Shown here piece by piece: positions 1-4,119 of a stretch of DNA of 4,119 nucleotides. The position numbers and the translations under genes are program-made. The DNA is from a virus (taxonomy: Duplodnaviria > Heunggongvirae > Uroviricota > Caudoviricetes): the IMG/VR virus record IMGVR_UViG_2660238209_000014, one strand, 5' to 3'. The notes below the pieces were generated by a model. The model did not search any database. It was not told the origin of the DNA and saw only the letters and a program-made list of their open reading frames with translations. Each line of letters begins with the position of its first letter. Within the stretch, counting starts at the first letter, position 1.

Positions 1-314
1 CACATAAAAATTTGTACCTACGGCGGGATCCGGAGGGTTCGCGACTAAGCATTATCGCCACCGTGCCGCCCGGTTGCCCCAGAGGGAAAAATAACACCCC
101 CGCCATGCTGACCGCCGCGCCATTTCGCGGATTGCCACAACCGGAAGCGCACGATCGAATTAAATTTAACGACGACCTATACAGAGAGACTAACTTCGCC
201 GGGCGCTTTCGTGTTATGCCCTGACTTTTCAGGGATATATCCTTTTCAGTAAACTGTCAGTGCCGGATTCTTATCCGTGTCCGGCGCACGCACTCTACCT
301 CACCTGTGAATAAA

Positions 315-689
315 TTAATGATTAATTGATATTTTGTTGTTTGATTCAACTTTCCCATCGGATGTGTGATGCTTTAAATCACAGGAATTAATACTGCTCG
401 CTGTAAAATGATTTTCAAGGGGAGCTATTCGAATCCCTTTCTTTTTCATTAACAAGCCAAATCCTTTATTAATGATGTCCATTAATTCCAGGAAGTATTT
501 TTCATGTAAATCCTGGTTATCAGAGAGCTGCTTCTCTTCGTACAGACCGATAAAGGCACGACGCACGTTACCGGATATAGTATCGATGGTTTCTTTTTCT
601 ACGGTACTCAGGTCAAGAGTCGCCAGTTGAGAGCGAACCACATTCGATGCCATTTCCTGGAATGGTACTGGTAAATCTTTAAATTCCAT
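315..689 (-). CDS. hypothetical protein, second gene of the leftward two-gene cassette (124 aa from ATG at 689; 128 aa if the upstream ATG at 701 is used); no family recognised
   Basis: ORF track 315..701 minus. The ATG at 689-687 is preceded by GAGG with a 6-nt spacer (minus strand TGAGGTTGACGATGG); the ATG at 701 has no Shine-Dalgarno but overlaps the upstream stop (TGATG). Stop TAA at 317-315. The 3' half (about 321-540) is about 34% G+C by hand count, clearly lower than its neighbours. The C-terminal tail is low-complexity (Ser/Asn/His/Lys-rich). Confidence 0.55.
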   Translation of the reverse strand: MEFKDLPVPFQEMASNVVRSQLATLDLSTVEKETIDTISGNVRRAFIGLYEEKQLSDNQDLHEKYFLELMDIINKGFGLLMKKKGIRIAPLENHFTASSINSCDLKHHTSDGKVESNNKISINH

Positions 690-700
690 CGTCAACCTCA

Positions 701-940
701 TCAGTCAGTGTTTCTGGTTAACCAGCGACGCGCGCCAGCTTCAGTTTTAAACGTTTTGCTTCTGGTATACGTCATCGCGGTAAACGTGCCGTCCTGGTTG
801 GGAAACACGCCGTACACCAGAGATTCGTTGTTGCCAAGATCGATAGTATCCATGCTGACCTCATTTCCCCTTAACGCTGGGGTAGCGGAACTAAAAACCT
901 GCTGCGCTGTTATACAAAGTGTTCCCGCCGTCATGTTCAT
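701..940 (-). CDS. small hypothetical protein, first gene of the leftward cassette (79 aa longest form; alternative starts at 934 and 853, the latter giving 50 aa)
   Basis: ORF track 701..940 minus. GAGG lies 3 nt before the ATG at 940 and 9 nt before the ATG at 934. The internal ATG at 853 has the best ribosome-binding site (GAGG, 5-nt spacer). Stop TGA at 703-701 overlaps the next ATG. It sits just downstream (in the transcription direction) of an operator-like palindrome. No family recognised; a competing plus-strand ORF 708..983 has a GTG start and no RBS. Confidence 0.45.
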   Translation of the reverse strand: MNMTAGTLCITAQQVFSSATPALRGNEVSMDTIDLGNNESLVYGVFPNQDGTFTAMTYTRSKTFKTEAGARRWLTRNTD

Positions 941-1034
941 ACGCCTCGGGCTGGCTACTTACCCCCTGACCACTGCTTGGTAACTCGAAGTATTGCCCGG
1001 CGTTCTGTGGGGCGGGGTGGGTTGGTATGTTGTT

Positions 1035-1054
1035 AAGGTAACAAGAGTTACCTT
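1035..1054. promoter_or_regulatory. operator-like palindrome AAGGTAAC-AAGA-GTTACCTT (putative OL-type repressor binding site)
   Basis: Perfect 8-bp inverted arms with a 4-bp spacer. The core GTAAC-N4-GTTAC is the same as the two palindromes between the repressor and cro genes (1801-1814, 1849-1862). This 14-bp core pattern occurs exactly three times in the window, all at regulatory positions. Weaker half-site-like sequences lie nearby (980-993). Confidence 0.55.
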
Positions 1055-1096
1055 TTGGGTTAATACAATGTTGCAAAAGGTACATTTGAGGGCATG

Positions 1097-1120
1097 AAAA
1101 ACCCGCAATGAATGCGGGTT
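1097..1120 (-). terminator. Rho-independent terminator just downstream of the repressor gene (minus-strand orientation)
   Basis: 8-bp GC-rich stem (1100-1107 AACCCGCA pairing with 1113-1120 TGCGGGTT) and a 5-nt loop, followed on the minus-strand RNA by a U-run (A-run 1097-1101 on the plus strand). It begins 5 nt after the repressor stop at 1126-1128. No U-tract follows it on the plus strand, so it looks unidirectional. Confidence 0.65.
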
Positions 1121-1125
1121 CTGAC

Positions 1126-1800
1126 TCAGTCTAAGTATTGATGTATTTGTGAAACTTTACCTTTAATGGTGTAACCACCATTCAGTTCGATGGGTTTGTA
1201 AAGCGGATTCAGTGACAACAGATAGATGTTTGGTCCGTCAATCGCAACTTTTTTTAGTGTTACGTTTGGCGTTCCTTCCAATTGGATTAAGATTATTTTT
1301 CCCACCAGTTCTCTAATGTTACTTGAGCATGGTGTGATCAGCACGGTAGATCCGTCGGGGATGGTTGGGAGGCCGTTAGAGTTTGTCATCGCATCTCCCT
1401 CAACATGCAATAAAAAAGAGTTTTCAGCGGTTTTTGTCATGACATCAACCCAATTCTTAATACCAGGAATCTCGGTTACTGGACAACTCATATCCCAATA
1501 ACCAGCCTGTTCCCACGTTAAAACGGGCAACCGGGCGATGTTGTCACTAATGTAAGGGTACTGATTCAGACGCAGATCATCGGCTTTATCGTGACCGTCC
1601 TTTCCATAAAGAATCCATTCAGGAGATTTGGAAAGCAATTTTGACAGTAGATACAAATTCTCACCGTCAGGTTTTGAAGAGCCATTTTCCCATTTTGTTA
1701 CGGATACACGAGATATGCCGATTGCTTTCGCAACCTGCTGTTGGGTTAATCCAACGTCTTTTCGACGATTCCGAATACGTTCGCTGATAGTGTTTTTCAT
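1126..1800 (-). CDS. cI: CI/C2-type prophage repressor: N-terminal XRE-family HTH plus C-terminal LexA-like (S24) domain, with Ala at the catalytic Ser position
   Basis: ORF track gives 1126..1842 (238 aa). I favour the ATG at 1800 (224 aa): that N-terminus (MKNTISERIRNRRK...) matches the start of P22 C2/434-type repressors as I recall them, and it places both operator palindromes and a consensus TTGACA in the intergenic region. HTH: LTQQQVAKAIGISRVSVTKWENG. Ala-Gly cleavage-site motif (WEQAGYW) present. The S24 motif reads VEGDAMT where LexA, lambda CI, UmuD and P22 C2 have G-D/N-S-M. Lys of the dyad is retained (VTLKKV). Tail LNPLYKPIELNGGYTIKGKV parallels lambda CI [20 protein letters not shown]. 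Confidence 0.9.
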   Translation of the reverse strand: MKNTISERIRNRRKDVGLTQQQVAKAIGISRVSVTKWENGSSKPDGENLYLLSKLLSKSPEWILYGKDGHDKADDLRLNQYPYISDNIARLPVLTWEQAGYWDMSCPVTEIPGIKNWVDVMTKTAENSFLLHVEGDAMTNSNGLPTIPDGSTVLITPCSSNIRELVGKIILIQLEGTPNVTLKKVAIDGPNIYLLSLNPLYKPIELNGGYTIKGKVSQIHQYLD

Positions 1801-1891
1801 GTAACCAATGTTACTACCAAGTGATGTTGCTATGGTTGACATTGTTATGTAACTATTGTTACCCTTCTACTCGAAATAACAGGAGAGTTTT
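1798..1891. promoter_or_regulatory. OR-type divergent operator/promoter region between the repressor and cro genes
   Basis: Two near-identical sites, ATGTAACCAATGTTAC (1799-1814) and ATGTAACTATTGTTAC (1847-1862), each a GTAAC-N4-GTTAC palindrome. Consensus -35 TTGACA at 1836-1841 faces rightward, with a weak -10 candidate TACCCT at 1860-1865 (18-bp spacer) overlapping the second operator. AGGAG at 1881-1885 lies 6 nt before the cro ATG. No Shine-Dalgarno precedes either candidate repressor ATG, so the repressor mRNA may be leaderless as for lambda cI from PRM. The leftward promoter hexamers could not be assigned confidently. Confidence 0.6.
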
Positions 1892-2107
1892 ATGTTCAAA
1901 GATGATGTTCTGCGCTATTTCAAAAAAAAGCGACTAGTAGCTGAGGCTCTTGGAATTTCACATGTGGCTGTTGTGCGGTGGAAAGCAGTTATTCCCAAAC
2001 TTCGCGCAATGGAACTGGATGAAATTACTAACGGTGAATTGAAATACAACCCAGAACTTTACAAGAAGCAGGATAGCACCTCAAACGAAGGAAAGAATGA
2101 TTCATGA
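1892..2107 (+). CDS. cro: Cro-like small HTH regulator (YdaS-like)
   Basis: 71-aa ORF with a good RBS (AGGAG, 6-nt spacer). HTH segment RLVAEALGISHVAVVRWK. Divergent from the repressor gene across the operator region. Its stop TGA (2105-2107) overlaps the next ATG (2104-2106) as ATGA. Confidence 0.8.
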   Translation: MFKDDVLRYFKKKRLVAEALGISHVAVVRWKAVIPKLRAMELDEITNGELKYNPELYKKQDSTSNEGKNDS

Positions 2108-2529
2108 AAATCAAGCATGAACACATCCGCATGGCGATGAATGTCTGGGCGCATCCGGACGGCGAAAAAGTACCGGCTGCGAAAATTACCAAAGCGTATT
2201 TCGAGCTGGGAATGACGTTCCCGGAACTGTATGACGACAGCCATCCGGAAGCCCTGGCCCGTAATACCCAGAAAATTTTCCGTTGGCTGGATAAAGACAC
2301 CCCTGATGCTGTTGAAAAAATGCAGGCTCTGTTACCGGCGATCGAAAAGGCGATGCCGCCTTTGCTGGTGGCCCGTATGCGCAGCCACAGTTCTGAATAT
2401 TACCGTGAGATCGTCGAACGGAGGGATCGGCTGGTGAAGGATGTCGATGATTTTGTTGCGTCAGCGGTTGTTTTGTATGACCAGATGAATCGCGGCGGCC
2501 CGGCAGGGAATGCTGTGGTGATGCACTAA
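2104..2529 (+). CDS. ydaT: YdaT-like protein (CII functional analogue; family formerly annotated as a putative toxin)
   Basis: 141-aa ORF, translationally coupled to cro. The N-terminus MKIKHEHI and the C-terminal ...VVMH end match my recollection of Rac prophage YdaT; its position right after cro is the cII position. Identity is from memory and needs a search to confirm. Confidence 0.75.
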   Translation: MKIKHEHIRMAMNVWAHPDGEKVPAAKITKAYFELGMTFPELYDDSHPEALARNTQKIFRWLDKDTPDAVEKMQALLPAIEKAMPPLLVARMRSHSSEYYREIVERRDRLVKDVDDFVASAVVLYDQMNRGGPAGNAVVMH

Positions 2530-2551
2530 AAGCACGGTGTTCGGGGGTTTT

Positions 2552-3514
2552 ATGAGCAGCAAGCTTCATGGTCTTGTCTGGGAAGGGTGCGCCTTCACCG
2601 GCATGATCTTATCCAGGGTGGCGGTTATGGCCCGTCTTGCAGACTACAGCAATGACGAGGGCGTGTCATGGCCTGCCATTGAAACTATCCGGCGTCAGAT
2701 CGGTGCAAGAAGTGAATCCACAGTGAAATCGGCTATTGCAGAACTGGCGAAAGAGGGCTGGCTGACGAAGGAAGAGCGTAAGGTCGGTGGGCGTAATGTA
2801 AGCAATATCTATCGGCTTAATGTGGAAAAACTCGAAGCAGCTGCTGCGGCGGCGCGTGAGTCATATAAACCGAAAAGAAAAATTAGCCCGGCAAAAAATG
2901 ACCCGTTAACAGTTGACCCGTCAAATATTGACCCCTCAACGGTTGACCCGTCAAATTTTGATGGATCAACTGTTGATAAAAAACTGCCGATTAGGGGGGC
3001 GATGATTGACCCCGATCCGTCAGTATTAAAACCTGATCCGTCAGATAAAAGATCTTCTTGTCCGGACGCTTCGCAACCGGACCCGCAGACGGCTGAACAG
3101 GATTTTTTAACCCGACACCCTGACGCGGTTGTGTTCAGTGCGAAAAAACGCCAGTGGGGAAGTCAGGAAGATTTGGTGTGCGCACAGTGGATCTGGGGAC
3201 GAATCGTGAGTCTTTACGAGCAGGCGGCCAGCGATGATGGCGAGATCACTAGACCGAAAGAACCCAACTGGACAGCATGGGCCAATGACGTTCGCACAAT
3301 GCGGATGCTGGATGGCAGAACTCACAGACAAATTTGTGAAATGTTTGGGCGTCTCCAGCGGGATTCGTTCTGGGTAAAAAACATCATGAGTCCGGCAAAA
3401 CTCCGGGAAAAATGGGATGAACTGGTTATCCGCCTGGGGCGTTCGCCTGCGCAGCGTTGCGTGAATCACATTTCTGAACCGGACACTGAAATTCCGCCGG
3501 GCTTCAGGGGGTAA
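2552..3514 (+). CDS. phage replication initiation protein (lambda O-like role; N-terminal winged-HTH DNA-binding domain, Pro/Asp-rich linker, C-terminal domain)
   Basis: ORF track 2537..3514 (GTG start). I favour the ATG at 2552, preceded by GGGGG with a 4-nt spacer (320 aa). N-terminal segment LSRVAVMARLADYSNDEGVSWPAIETIRRQIGARSESTVKSAIAELAKEGWLT has the pattern of phage replication-initiator HTH domains. The origin iterons lie inside the coding sequence and encode the repetitive linker DPLTVDPSNIDPSTVDPSNFDGSTVD, as lambda ori lies inside O. Confidence 0.85.
   Translation: MSSKLHGLVWEGCAFTGMILSRVAVMARLADYSNDEGVSWPAIETIRRQIGARSESTVKSAIAELAKEGWLTKEERKVGGRNVSNIYRLNVEKLEAAAAAARESYKPKRKISPAKNDPLTVDPSNIDPSTVDPSNFDGSTVDKKLPIRGAMIDPDPSVLKPDPSDKRSSCPDASQPDPQTAEQDFLTRHPDAVVFSAKKRQWGSQEDLVCAQWIWGRIVSLYEQAASDDGEITRPKEPNWTAWANDVRTMRMLDGRTHRQICEMFGRLQRDSFWVKNIMSPAKLREKWDELVIRLGRSPAQRCVNHISEPDTEIPPGFRG
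2899..2988. repeat. replication-origin iterons: tandem ~15-bp repeats, consensus TGACCCGTCAAnnnT (4 good copies, 2 degenerate), followed by an A-rich stretch
   Basis: TGACCC(G/C) begins at 2899, 2914, 2929 and 2944, an exact 15-bp period; degenerate copies begin at 2959 and 2974. Iterons 2 and 4 (and iteron 3 with one mismatch) contain an internal dyad TTGAC-CC-GTCAA. Related repeats GATCCGTCAG occur at 3014-3023 and 3035-3044, with an A/T-rich stretch at 2974-2990. Confidence 0.7.
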
Positions 3515-3554
3515 GTGTTAATTTCTGGTCATGAGGTAATTTTCAGGAGGGCTT

Positions 3555-3977
3555 GTGGCAAAAGTTTTTACACAAGAAGAGCAGGAGAAAATTAAAGGGC
3601 AGGTTGTTGAACTCGTACGCCAGAGTGGGCGCGAGACGTTACGACAACTGGAAACTAAAACTGGGGCAACAAGATATCTGATGAGCGTTCTGGCCAGAGA
3701 GCTGGTTGCCAGTGGCGATGTATACAACTCTGGTTACGGGTTATTCCCGTCTGAACAGGCGCGTAAGGACTGGCAAAATGCCCGTAAAAAGCTCTCAAGG
3801 GCAAAGCTGAAGAAACCATCTGCGGTTGATCCGGACCTTATCTGGTCATTACCTGACGGAGAAATACGTCGCTACGACAGGCGTCTGAACATAATCTGTC
3901 TCGAGTGCCGGAAGAGCGAAGTTATGCAGCGCGTACTGGCGTTTTATCAGGGGAATTTTGAGGAGGTGGTGCGGTGA
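3555..3977 (+). CDS. hypothetical protein (140 aa) immediately downstream of the replication initiator; function unknown
   Basis: ORF with GTG start at 3555 preceded by a strong AGGAGG (3545-3550, 4-nt spacer). Basic, Lys/Arg-rich; no family recognised. It sits where lambdoid phages usually carry a helicase loader or helicase gene but is far too small to be a DnaC/P/DnaB-type protein. Confidence 0.6.
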   Translation: MAKVFTQEEQEKIKGQVVELVRQSGRETLRQLETKTGATRYLMSVLARELVASGDVYNSGYGLFPSEQARKDWQNARKKLSRAKLKKPSAVDPDLIWSLPDGEIRRYDRRLNIICLECRKSEVMQRVLAFYQGNFEEVVR

Positions 3978-3987
3978 GTGAATCAAA

Positions 3988-4119
3988 ATGCCAGTGAACC
4001 GCCCCGGGTTTCCTGGAGAGTGTTTTATCTGTGAACTCAGGCTGCCAGATCATCGTTTCCGATGGAAGCATAATAAGCTTTTTCTGCTTCTGCCGGAGGA
4101 GTATGGCCCAGCCTTCCCA
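3988..4119 (+). CDS. 5' end of a further rightward gene (partial; runs off the window)
   Basis: ATG at 3988 opens a frame that stays open to the window end (44 codons: MPVNRPGFPGECFICELRLPDHRFRWKHNKLF...). A GGTGAG SD-like sequence lies about 9 nt upstream, overlapping the stop of the preceding gene. Too short to identify. Confidence 0.3.
   Translation, partial: MPVNRPGFPGECFICELRLPDHRFRWKHNKLFLLLPEEYGPAFP

Follow-up and report, generated by a model that had tools for sequence, protein, structure and literature searches.

A probable exchangeable AT-rich cassette in the 3' half of an early-operon gene of a Qin-like lambdoid prophage

The genomes of lambdoid phages are reportedly divided into modules with mosaic boundaries, as brought out in the HK97 and HK022 comparisons of Hendrix, Juhala and colleagues. 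Two other kinds of variable locus bear on what follows: morons, which are accessory genes that have been added between conserved phage genes and whose base composition, usually AT-rich, is deviant, and polymorphic toxin/immunity loci, in which a conserved N-terminal region is joined to a variable C-terminal domain and a cognate small gene lies adjacent. In the Qin prophage of Escherichia coli K-12, the dicBF operon has the order ydfA-ydfB-ydfC-dicF-dicB-ydfD (PMC5069750). Here we analyze a stretch of 4,119 nucleotides (nt) from a Caudoviricetes virus, IMG/VR record IMGVR_UViG_2660238209_000014, which as a whole we call the window, and within it gene X, a gene of 124 amino acids (aa) that follows a ydfA-like gene and that is AT-rich in its 3' half.

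We believe that the low-G+C stretch at approximately 309-529 is probably an exchangeable, AT-rich cassette lying between two conserved recombination anchors, and that the step in G+C inside gene X is its seam. The features on which this argument turns are the following, in window coordinates.

98-308, minus strand: candidate left recombination anchor, an untranslated leader between the variable slot and dicF/dicB, 87-98% identical in all comparators
309-529, minus strand: putative exchangeable AT-rich cassette (221 nt, 31.7% G+C), made up of a 6-nt spacer, the stop codon and codons 55-124 of X
315-689, minus strand: gene X, 124 aa, second gene of the operon, which carries the G+C step
318-404, minus strand: variable tail of X, predicted to be disordered, codons 96-124
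405-527, minus strand: C-terminal module proper of X, codons 55-95, a short linker and predicted helix 3, 33% G+C
528-689, minus strand: conserved N-terminal module of X, codons 1-54, with two predicted helices; its 3' boundary is the candidate right anchor
701-853, minus strand: ydfA-like DUF1391 gene, first gene of the operon and part of the right conserved flank (Pfam DUF1391, E = 1.5e-27; RefSeq annotation)

The first-pass annotation of this stretch, made from the sequence by eye, had reported a sharp drop in G+C at 315-540, and the drop is real: G+C is 33.6% over that interval and 34.1% over 321-540, where the hand count had given about 34%, and the whole window has 47.7%. The lowest-G+C stretch of 226 nt in the window starts at 294-299 with 32.3% G+C, a minimum that was equaled or undercut in 1 of 2000 mononucleotide shuffles (shuffle mean 39.3%, standard deviation 1.5). 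Maximum-likelihood segmentation of 1-1125 with two change-points identified a low segment at 309-511 (30.0% G+C) between flanks of 53.9% and 48.9%, with support intervals of 292-313 for the left change-point and 487-542 for the right, and a log-likelihood gain of 15.5. The change also falls inside one open reading frame (ORF), as had been claimed. In the minus-strand ORF at 315-701, positions 315-529 have 32.6% G+C versus 45.3% for 530-701 (Fisher p = 0.012), and the fall is seen at the first, second and third codon positions (0.52/0.37/0.46 for codons 1-54 of the 128-codon ORF versus 0.40/0.24/0.36 for the remainder). To the left, 1-308 is G+C-rich (53.7-53.9%). For the genes on the right a value of roughly 50% had been given; the YdaT-like, O-like and DUF977 genes do have 50-53%, but the repressor and cro genes have 42% and 41%. 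The composition of the cassette is deviant between conserved neighbors (31.7% versus flanks of 54% and 48%), the content of this slot differs in all comparators, and the alternative inserts found there, all of 37-46% G+C, are more AT-rich than the left anchor (52-56%).

To place these changes relative to other prophages, we compared 300-720 with 5426 complete E. coli genomes and mapped representatives onto a near-identical locus from an O111 strain. Over 98-1200 the window shares 99.8% identity with a prophage of E. coli O111:H- 11128 and with many other Shiga toxin-producing E. coli (STEC) genomes. In these genomes, including the near-identical O111 locus, dicB and a DUF1482 (ydfD-like) gene lie further left, which makes X the second gene in an early-left operon of the dicBF type. 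The query was matched in 1858 genomes, of which only 598 cover at least 80% of it. The remaining matches are to the right-hand part only, and they start at window position 530, 510, 577, 648 or 670. The representatives (L numbers denote comparator loci) break and resume as follows.

L002: left homology to 308, right homology resumes at 530; X of type B
L003: left homology to 290, right homology resumes at 510; X of type C
L004: left homology to 308, right homology resumes at 577
L005: left homology to 229, right homology resumes at 670; a fourth X type
L007 and L010: left homology to 308, right homology resumes at 373; same helix 3, different tail
L008: left homology to 308, right homology resumes at 315; same X type, 89% identical
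K-12 Qin: left homology to 308, right homology resumes at 722; ydfB and ydfC fill the slot at 309-721

On the left side, L002, L004, L007, L008, L010 and K-12 Qin are 87-98% identical to the window from dicB to 308; to the right of 530, 510, 577 or 670 the comparators are 89-94% identical, and in between the sequence is unrelated, with no DNA homology of 309-529 to the comparators of type B, C or D. Similarity is thus lost abruptly at fixed coordinates in eight comparators, which is how a mosaic joint is recognized in lambdoid phages. The left joint lies at 308/309, 6 nt beyond the X stop codon, and a sub-joint at about 373 divides the tail variants that end in ISINH from those that end in SKQEN.

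Further evidence came from X genes that share the C-terminal type of the window, which we call type A. We collected 80 IMG/VR loci with type-A X genes and distinguished 38 alleles of the gene and 40 haplotypes that have the window's arrangement. Across these haplotypes, 0-4% of haplotype-sites per 20-nt bin differ from the window between about 220 and 539; from 540 onward the mismatch is 5-7% in most bins, with the first cluster of mismatches at 546-582. The G+C change-point, the loss of homology and this step in same-type divergence are three independent lines, and they place the joint at approximately 510-545. The first-pass annotation had offered a mosaic joint or recombined 3' end as one account of the G+C drop and had proposed alignment of homologous prophage regions as a check. 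Identity breaks at both joints in those alignments, and the breaks at 530, 510, 577 and 670, the resumption at or before 308 and the divergence step near 540 bear that account out.

The same collection speaks to the age of the joint. In most loci that lack the small convergent gene Y, described below, the cassette at 309-529 is 98-100% identical to that of the window, while identity in the same-type flanks is 83-94% for the left anchor and 91-96% for the N module. The presence of a near-identical cassette allele across diverged flanks points to continuing exchange between backgrounds. Identities of the N and C parts can also be discordant: the N module, codons 55-95 and the tail have 98%, 89% and 71% identity in one locus and 94%, 98% and 99% in another. 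In one database protein, P0016, residues 33-124 are identical and helix 1 is different. X is a patchwork, with a major seam at codons 50-54 and minor seams near codons 7-8, 32 and 95. The G+C step itself is present in 38 of 38 alleles, with 44.1% in codons 1-54, 33.4% in codons 55-95 (range 30.9-35.8%) and 35.9% in the tail, and type-A X genes adjoin either ydfA or ydfC and occur with at least four repressor types. Because the same step is found in all of these alleles and in several immunity regions, the fusion long predates this prophage. The proposal that the 3' end had been recently acquired is therefore right only in part: the fusion is old, and it is the cassette allele that appears, 98-100% identical, across diverged flanks.

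Both halves of X are under purifying selection. The ratio of nonsynonymous to synonymous change (dN/dS, pooled Nei-Gojobori) is lowest in the N module (0.18), slightly higher in codons 55-95 (0.22) and highest in the tail (codons 96-124; 0.34), and the length is 124 aa in 38 of 38 distinct alleles. The low dN/dS and the fixed length indicate that the 3' half is constrained coding sequence and is not decaying, with the tail the least constrained part, and the earlier suggestion of a degenerating C-terminus finds no support in these figures. Tail subtypes are 69-71% identical to each other in nucleotide sequence, and the last five codons (ISINH) are kept across them. Truncated or frameshifted relatives do occur elsewhere (L004, P0074, P0062 and P0078).

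The X protein belongs to a modular family. It corresponds to RefSeq WP_000394557.1, a hypothetical protein with its start ATG at 689-687, and it matches phrog_6937, a family of unknown function, over its full length (E = 1.3e-76, residues 1-124 to profile positions 1-124 of 124). We accepted the ATG at 689 because homology to loci with another upstream gene ends exactly at 689, because every database homologue begins MEFKDLP, and because GAGG sits 6 nt upstream. The 128-codon form that starts with the ATG at 701 is not the database form and was dropped. At 699-703, TGATG combines the ydfA stop codon with this in-frame upstream ATG of X, an overlap typical of translational coupling.

The N-terminal 55 residues match five PHROG families that have different C-termini, and the full length matches phrog_6937 only. 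When the 53-residue N module was compared, without a profile, with 1.84 billion representative proteins, it matched 34 clusters, and in 32 of these the match begins at residue 1 of a protein of 31-208 aa; among the full-length examples that we inspected, at least 10 unrelated continuations follow residue 50-54. Comparator X proteins likewise share the start MEFKDLP...NVRRAFIGLYEEK and then continue in unrelated sequence, the common MEFKDLP...GLYEEK portion splitting into types A, B, C, D and others. An AlphaFold2 model of X, built on a 37-sequence alignment, has helices at aa 8-23, 32-53 and 59-83 in what is predicted to be a generic three-helix arrangement, and the joint at aa 50-54 lies in the loop between predicted helices 2 and 3 (mean predicted local distance difference test score, pLDDT, only 61.8). 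The tail is predicted to be disordered, with pLDDT below 50 for aa 91-124 and tail values of 30-40. It had been described as low-complexity, which is not strictly so: although rich in S, N and H, it has a Shannon entropy of 3.51 bits over 33 aa, within the range of the other 33-aa windows of the same protein (3.47-3.84). Foldseek comparison of the model with the PDB gave only generic helical matches with E above 1. The K-12 proteins YdfB and YdfC are unrelated to X in sequence and were ruled out as homologues, and a plus-strand ORF at 472-630 (52 aa) in the AT-rich region was set aside for want of supporting evidence.

The mechanism that we favor is homologous recombination at the two anchors. 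The right anchor would be the coding sequence for the N-terminal 50-54 residues of X together with ydfA, and the left anchor would be the G+C-rich leader upstream of dicF; recombination at these anchors among co-resident or co-infecting dicBF-type prophages would swap the intervening DNA. X would then be a chimera, a conserved two-helix N module joined before helix 3 to one of at least 10 unrelated C-termini, and its N-terminal coding module would double as the right anchor. Abundant, multi-copy prophages of the dicBF type could supply the substrate. Window positions 1-1200 find matches in 4275 of the 5426 complete E. coli genomes, with a median of 2 and up to 9 copies per genome, most of these matches being partial and largely to the left anchor (only 176 cover at least 80%). 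Phage accessory, moron-like DNA is expected to be AT-rich, and we infer that the AT-richness of the cassette reflects a separate origin of this kind and not selection for a function at the DNA level. Both modules of X presumably contribute to a protein function that is expressed after derepression of the prophage.

Several points weigh against this interpretation. The contrast in G+C within the ORF is, by itself, only moderately significant (Fisher p = 0.012-0.034), and the dN/dS values are pooled over sequence pairs that are not independent. The placement of the joint at a domain boundary is tentative, since confidence in the structural model is modest. A donor search found the helix-3 C-terminal module confined to the X family itself, in Escherichia and Salmonella, and found no donor lineage for the AT-rich type-A module outside that family; because of this, a foreign origin is argued from composition alone. 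Finally, stronger constraint, instead of recent transfer, might in principle account for the cassette being more alike than its flanks. In answer to this last point, we note that synonymous diversity among type-A genes is higher in the cassette (proportion of synonymous differences 0.20-0.31) than in the N module (0.15).

The variable segment is longer in most comparators, spanning 250-570 nt (221 nt here), and it also holds a plus-strand ORF of 63-101 aa, which we call Y. Y converges on X, and the two genes overlap at their 3' ends by 11-41 nt. The Y genes of six comparators encode unrelated proteins, have 35-43% G+C and are annotated by pipelines as hypothetical proteins; we saw at least 6 unrelated Y types. 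Five of the six match a PHROG family of their own, of unknown function, and the Y of L007 matches none. Four of them (L002, L004, L007 and L008) have the identical upstream sequence ACCAACCCTCAGGAGGGTGAA-ATG just past the left anchor, a strong ribosome-binding region, and these four genes (for example L008:1254-1511) are 73-92 aa long with 35-37% G+C; those of L003 and L005 have other upstream sequences. The window has no Y, nor the Y upstream motif (0 matches at up to 3 mismatches). Between its X stop codon and the anchor there are 6 nt, as in 60 of the 80 type-A loci, whereas 17 of the 80 have a gap of 247-280 nt that holds Y. One element of the Y-bearing arrangement is nevertheless kept in the window despite the absence of Y.

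315-325: the 11-mer TTAATGATTAA, which in Y-bearing relatives forms the overlapping convergent stops of X (TTA on the plus strand) and Y (TAA), from the L008 alignment with its 11-nt gene overlap

This 11-mer sits inside a near-palindrome, ATAAATTAAT-G-ATTAATTGAT, that spans 310-330. A simple, recent deletion of Y from an L008-like ancestor was considered and is not demonstrable, as the junctions share only a TTAAT microhomology and the tails are 69-71% identical.

The existence of Y suggests a reading in which the slot is a hotspot of functional diversity, where the variable C module of X works with or against Y – as effector and antagonist, toxin and immunity protein, or defence and counter-defence – and where the window has lost its Y. 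The joining of one N module to so many unrelated C modules would fit such a role, as would the identical ACCAACCCTCAGGAGGGTGAA-ATG region in front of unrelated Y proteins and the 3' overlaps of the two genes. Across 120 IMG/VR loci, retrieved by the ACCAACCCTCAGGAGGGTGAA-ATG motif, the association of Y type with the C-terminal type of X is moreover almost one-to-one. We nevertheless regard this reading as unlikely. Y and the C-terminal module of X sit side by side, enclosed by one pair of anchors, so that linkage suffices to explain their association, and the helix-3 module of type A can be accompanied by either of two Y genes or by no Y at all, which argues that Y tracks the abutting tail and not the folded module. 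None of the X and Y proteins that we examined passed the curated cut-off of a Pfam family, and we recognized no toxin, defence or other known domain among them; X, the other X types and the Y proteins also gave no meaningful match to the PDB, by sequence profile or by Foldseek, and PADLOC returned only two marginal, non-significant matches for X and Y. The window itself lacks both Y and its ribosome-binding motif. A more specific form of the idea, to which we give equally little weight, is that X is a polymorphic adaptor whose fixed N module would dock to a conserved partner, and that the C modules, together with a Y expressed in the lysogen, would confer matched specificities (for example exclusion and anti-exclusion, or toxin and immunity); the window would then be a minimal variant from which Y has been lost.

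It is likewise doubtful that the AT-rich tract has been kept as a DNA-level element, a nucleation or silencing site for H-NS that would damp leaky transcription through dicF/dicB. The E. coli chromosome has about 51% G+C, and the cassette, with 31.7% over 221 nt, is far more AT-rich than that; all inserts in the slot are relatively AT-rich. The tract also lies upstream of dicF and dicB, whose expression is toxic (PMC5069750). Against such a role, the high-affinity H-NS motif is not enriched (5 matches in the window versus 5.06 expected, the two in 300-540 both with 2 mismatches), the tract is short and under protein-coding constraint, and the K-12 Qin insert in the same slot has 46% G+C.

Other scans of the region gave little. 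When 1-1200 were scanned for promoter and terminator consensus sequences, the plus strand showed a single weak promoter-like site, fewer than in shuffled sequence, and there was no terminator; since such sites are no commoner than in shuffles, we rejected an embedded transcription unit. An Rfam scan of the whole window (E of 1 or less) found nothing in 1-1000 and two sub-threshold matches elsewhere. A search of 250-760 for direct and inverted repeats gave four short AT-rich inverted pairs, which is about the chance level. One of them, a 12-nt repeat at 303-314 and 374-385 (CCTGTGAATAAA and TTAAATCACAGG, 83% complementary) brackets the tail near the joints at 308 and 373, and it is probably a chance occurrence in AT-rich DNA without significance.

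Less probable still is that the gene belongs to a single protein family passed on vertically, in which the G+C step merely follows from a C-terminal half rich in K, N, I, F and S, with no joint at this position. The first-pass annotation had named the finding of the same full-length protein, of the same composition, in unrelated prophages as evidence for a quirk of this kind. We did find it: the step occurs in all 38 type-A alleles, the same 124-aa protein is encoded by prophages with different immunity regions, and G+C at the second codon position is especially low in the C-terminal part, at 0.24. That finding does not discriminate between the two accounts, however, because the mosaic joint is real as well. 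G+C falls at the third codon position too, from 0.46 to 0.36; the compositional change-point and the place where other prophages cease to be homologous are no more than 20 nt apart; and same-type divergence steps up near 540, with discordant identities of the N and C parts.

Least probable of all is that the 3' half is a decaying or read-through end, created when an insertion displaced the original end of the gene and left the ORF to run through non-coding AT-rich DNA to a chance stop: the tail (aa 91-124) is indeed the most variable part of X, its variants switch together with the neighboring Y cassette, and frameshifted and truncated relatives exist, but dN/dS well below 1 in both C-terminal segments, a length of exactly 124 aa in 38 alleles, a confident-looking predicted amphipathic helix at aa 59-83 and the ISINH end kept across tail subtypes all speak against it, and it may be partly valid for the last 20-30 residues only.

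An exchangeable cassette between conserved anchors is thus the account that we prefer, and it can be set in the context of the rest of the window, which is the immunity and early region of a Qin-like lambdoid prophage. The remaining genes, from a gene table based on RefSeq and Pfam, are listed here.

1126-1842, minus strand: LexA-family, cI-type repressor gene
1892-2107, plus strand: cro-like gene
2104-2529, plus strand: YdaT-family gene
2537-3514, plus strand: helix-turn-helix replication-initiator-like (O-like) gene
3555-3977, plus strand: DUF977 gene

The ydfA-like gene is 93-95% identical to K-12 ydfA and to that of L005. Some STEC prophages that carry the repressor and cro genes of the window (L009 and L211) have the arrangement ydfA-ydfB-ydfC-X. 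Here ydfB and ydfC are inserted between ydfA and X, with breaks at 689 and 722, and the ydfA/X slot is therefore a further presence/absence joint.

Two additional features were seen outside the operon. Directly downstream of the repressor gene, at 1093-1125, is a G+C-rich hairpin, AACCCGCAATGAATGCGGGTT, which is probably the terminator of that gene although the simple terminator scan did not call it; a sub-threshold Rfam match to the Trp leader covers 1093-1186. Within the replication-initiator-like gene, at 2890-2990, four or five direct copies of TTGACCC(G/C)TCAA were noticed by eye, and they look like gene-embedded origin iterons such as those in the lambda O gene.

The two ends of the window differ from its interior. 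Positions 98-3994 are 98-99.8% identical to STEC prophages, whereas for 1-97 blastn found no match either in the 5426 complete E. coli genomes or among 50,697 phage records. In an ungapped comparison with the 5' flank of dicF in the comparators, 1-97 are 49.5% identical and 98-308 are 99.1% identical; this might be due to a further mosaic joint at 97/98, to strong divergence of the allele or to alteration of the window end. At the other end, approximately 3995-4119 are the terminus of an IS3-family element of the IS1203/IS629 type, inserted just after the DUF977 gene. This terminus has 100% matches at up to 50 places per genome, and the same DUF977/insertion sequence junction is present in O111:NM FWSEC0005 beside a different immunity region.

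We see several points of value in these results. A compositional step noticed by eye can be enough to place a recombination seam with a precision of about 20 nt, and the seam in question is an intragenic one, reused by many unrelated 3' modules in a prophage operon that is among the most widespread in E. coli. For annotation, the hypothetical proteins of this slot can be recognized as a modular family with a shared N module and a variable C module, and the neighboring convergent small ORFs as real genes. The finding has given no functional insight as yet.

Compared with the systems described at the outset, the polymorphic toxin/immunity loci are the least similar. The locus shares with them a conserved N-terminus, a swappable C-terminus, a sharp junction between the two and, in relatives, an adjacent small ORF that co-varies. 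It differs in that no toxin or delivery domain was found, the proteins are only 47-208 aa long, the partner gene converges on X and does not follow it in the same direction, linkage accounts for the association, and the partner is absent from the window. Morons are closer, in that the composition is AT-rich and deviant and the content is present, absent or variable between conserved neighbors. The Y genes of relatives, on the opposite strand with a strong ribosome-binding site of their own, fit the moron idea well. The segment in the window does not, for it forms the 3' end of a gene within an operon, neither a promoter nor a terminator of its own was found, and Y is absent.

The dicBF operon of K-12 Qin has the same layout and the same orientation relative to the repressor, and ydfA and the dicF leader are 94.7% and 94.1% identical between the two; the slot holds ydfB and ydfC in K-12 versus X here, and the repressor is DicA in K-12 versus a LexA-family, cI-type protein here. 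As in the mosaic boundaries of lambdoid phages, identity passes abruptly from about 90-99% to no similarity, the same segment is found in diverged genomes, and composition shifts at the joint. Where those boundaries lie at gene borders, one joint here is inside a 124-aa gene, in a loop between predicted helices, and it is reused by many unrelated 3' ends. In sum, the feature is ordinary, well-established lambdoid mosaicism with AT-rich accessory DNA, and what is somewhat unusual about it is a reused intragenic seam in a modular family, beside a variable slot for a convergent gene.

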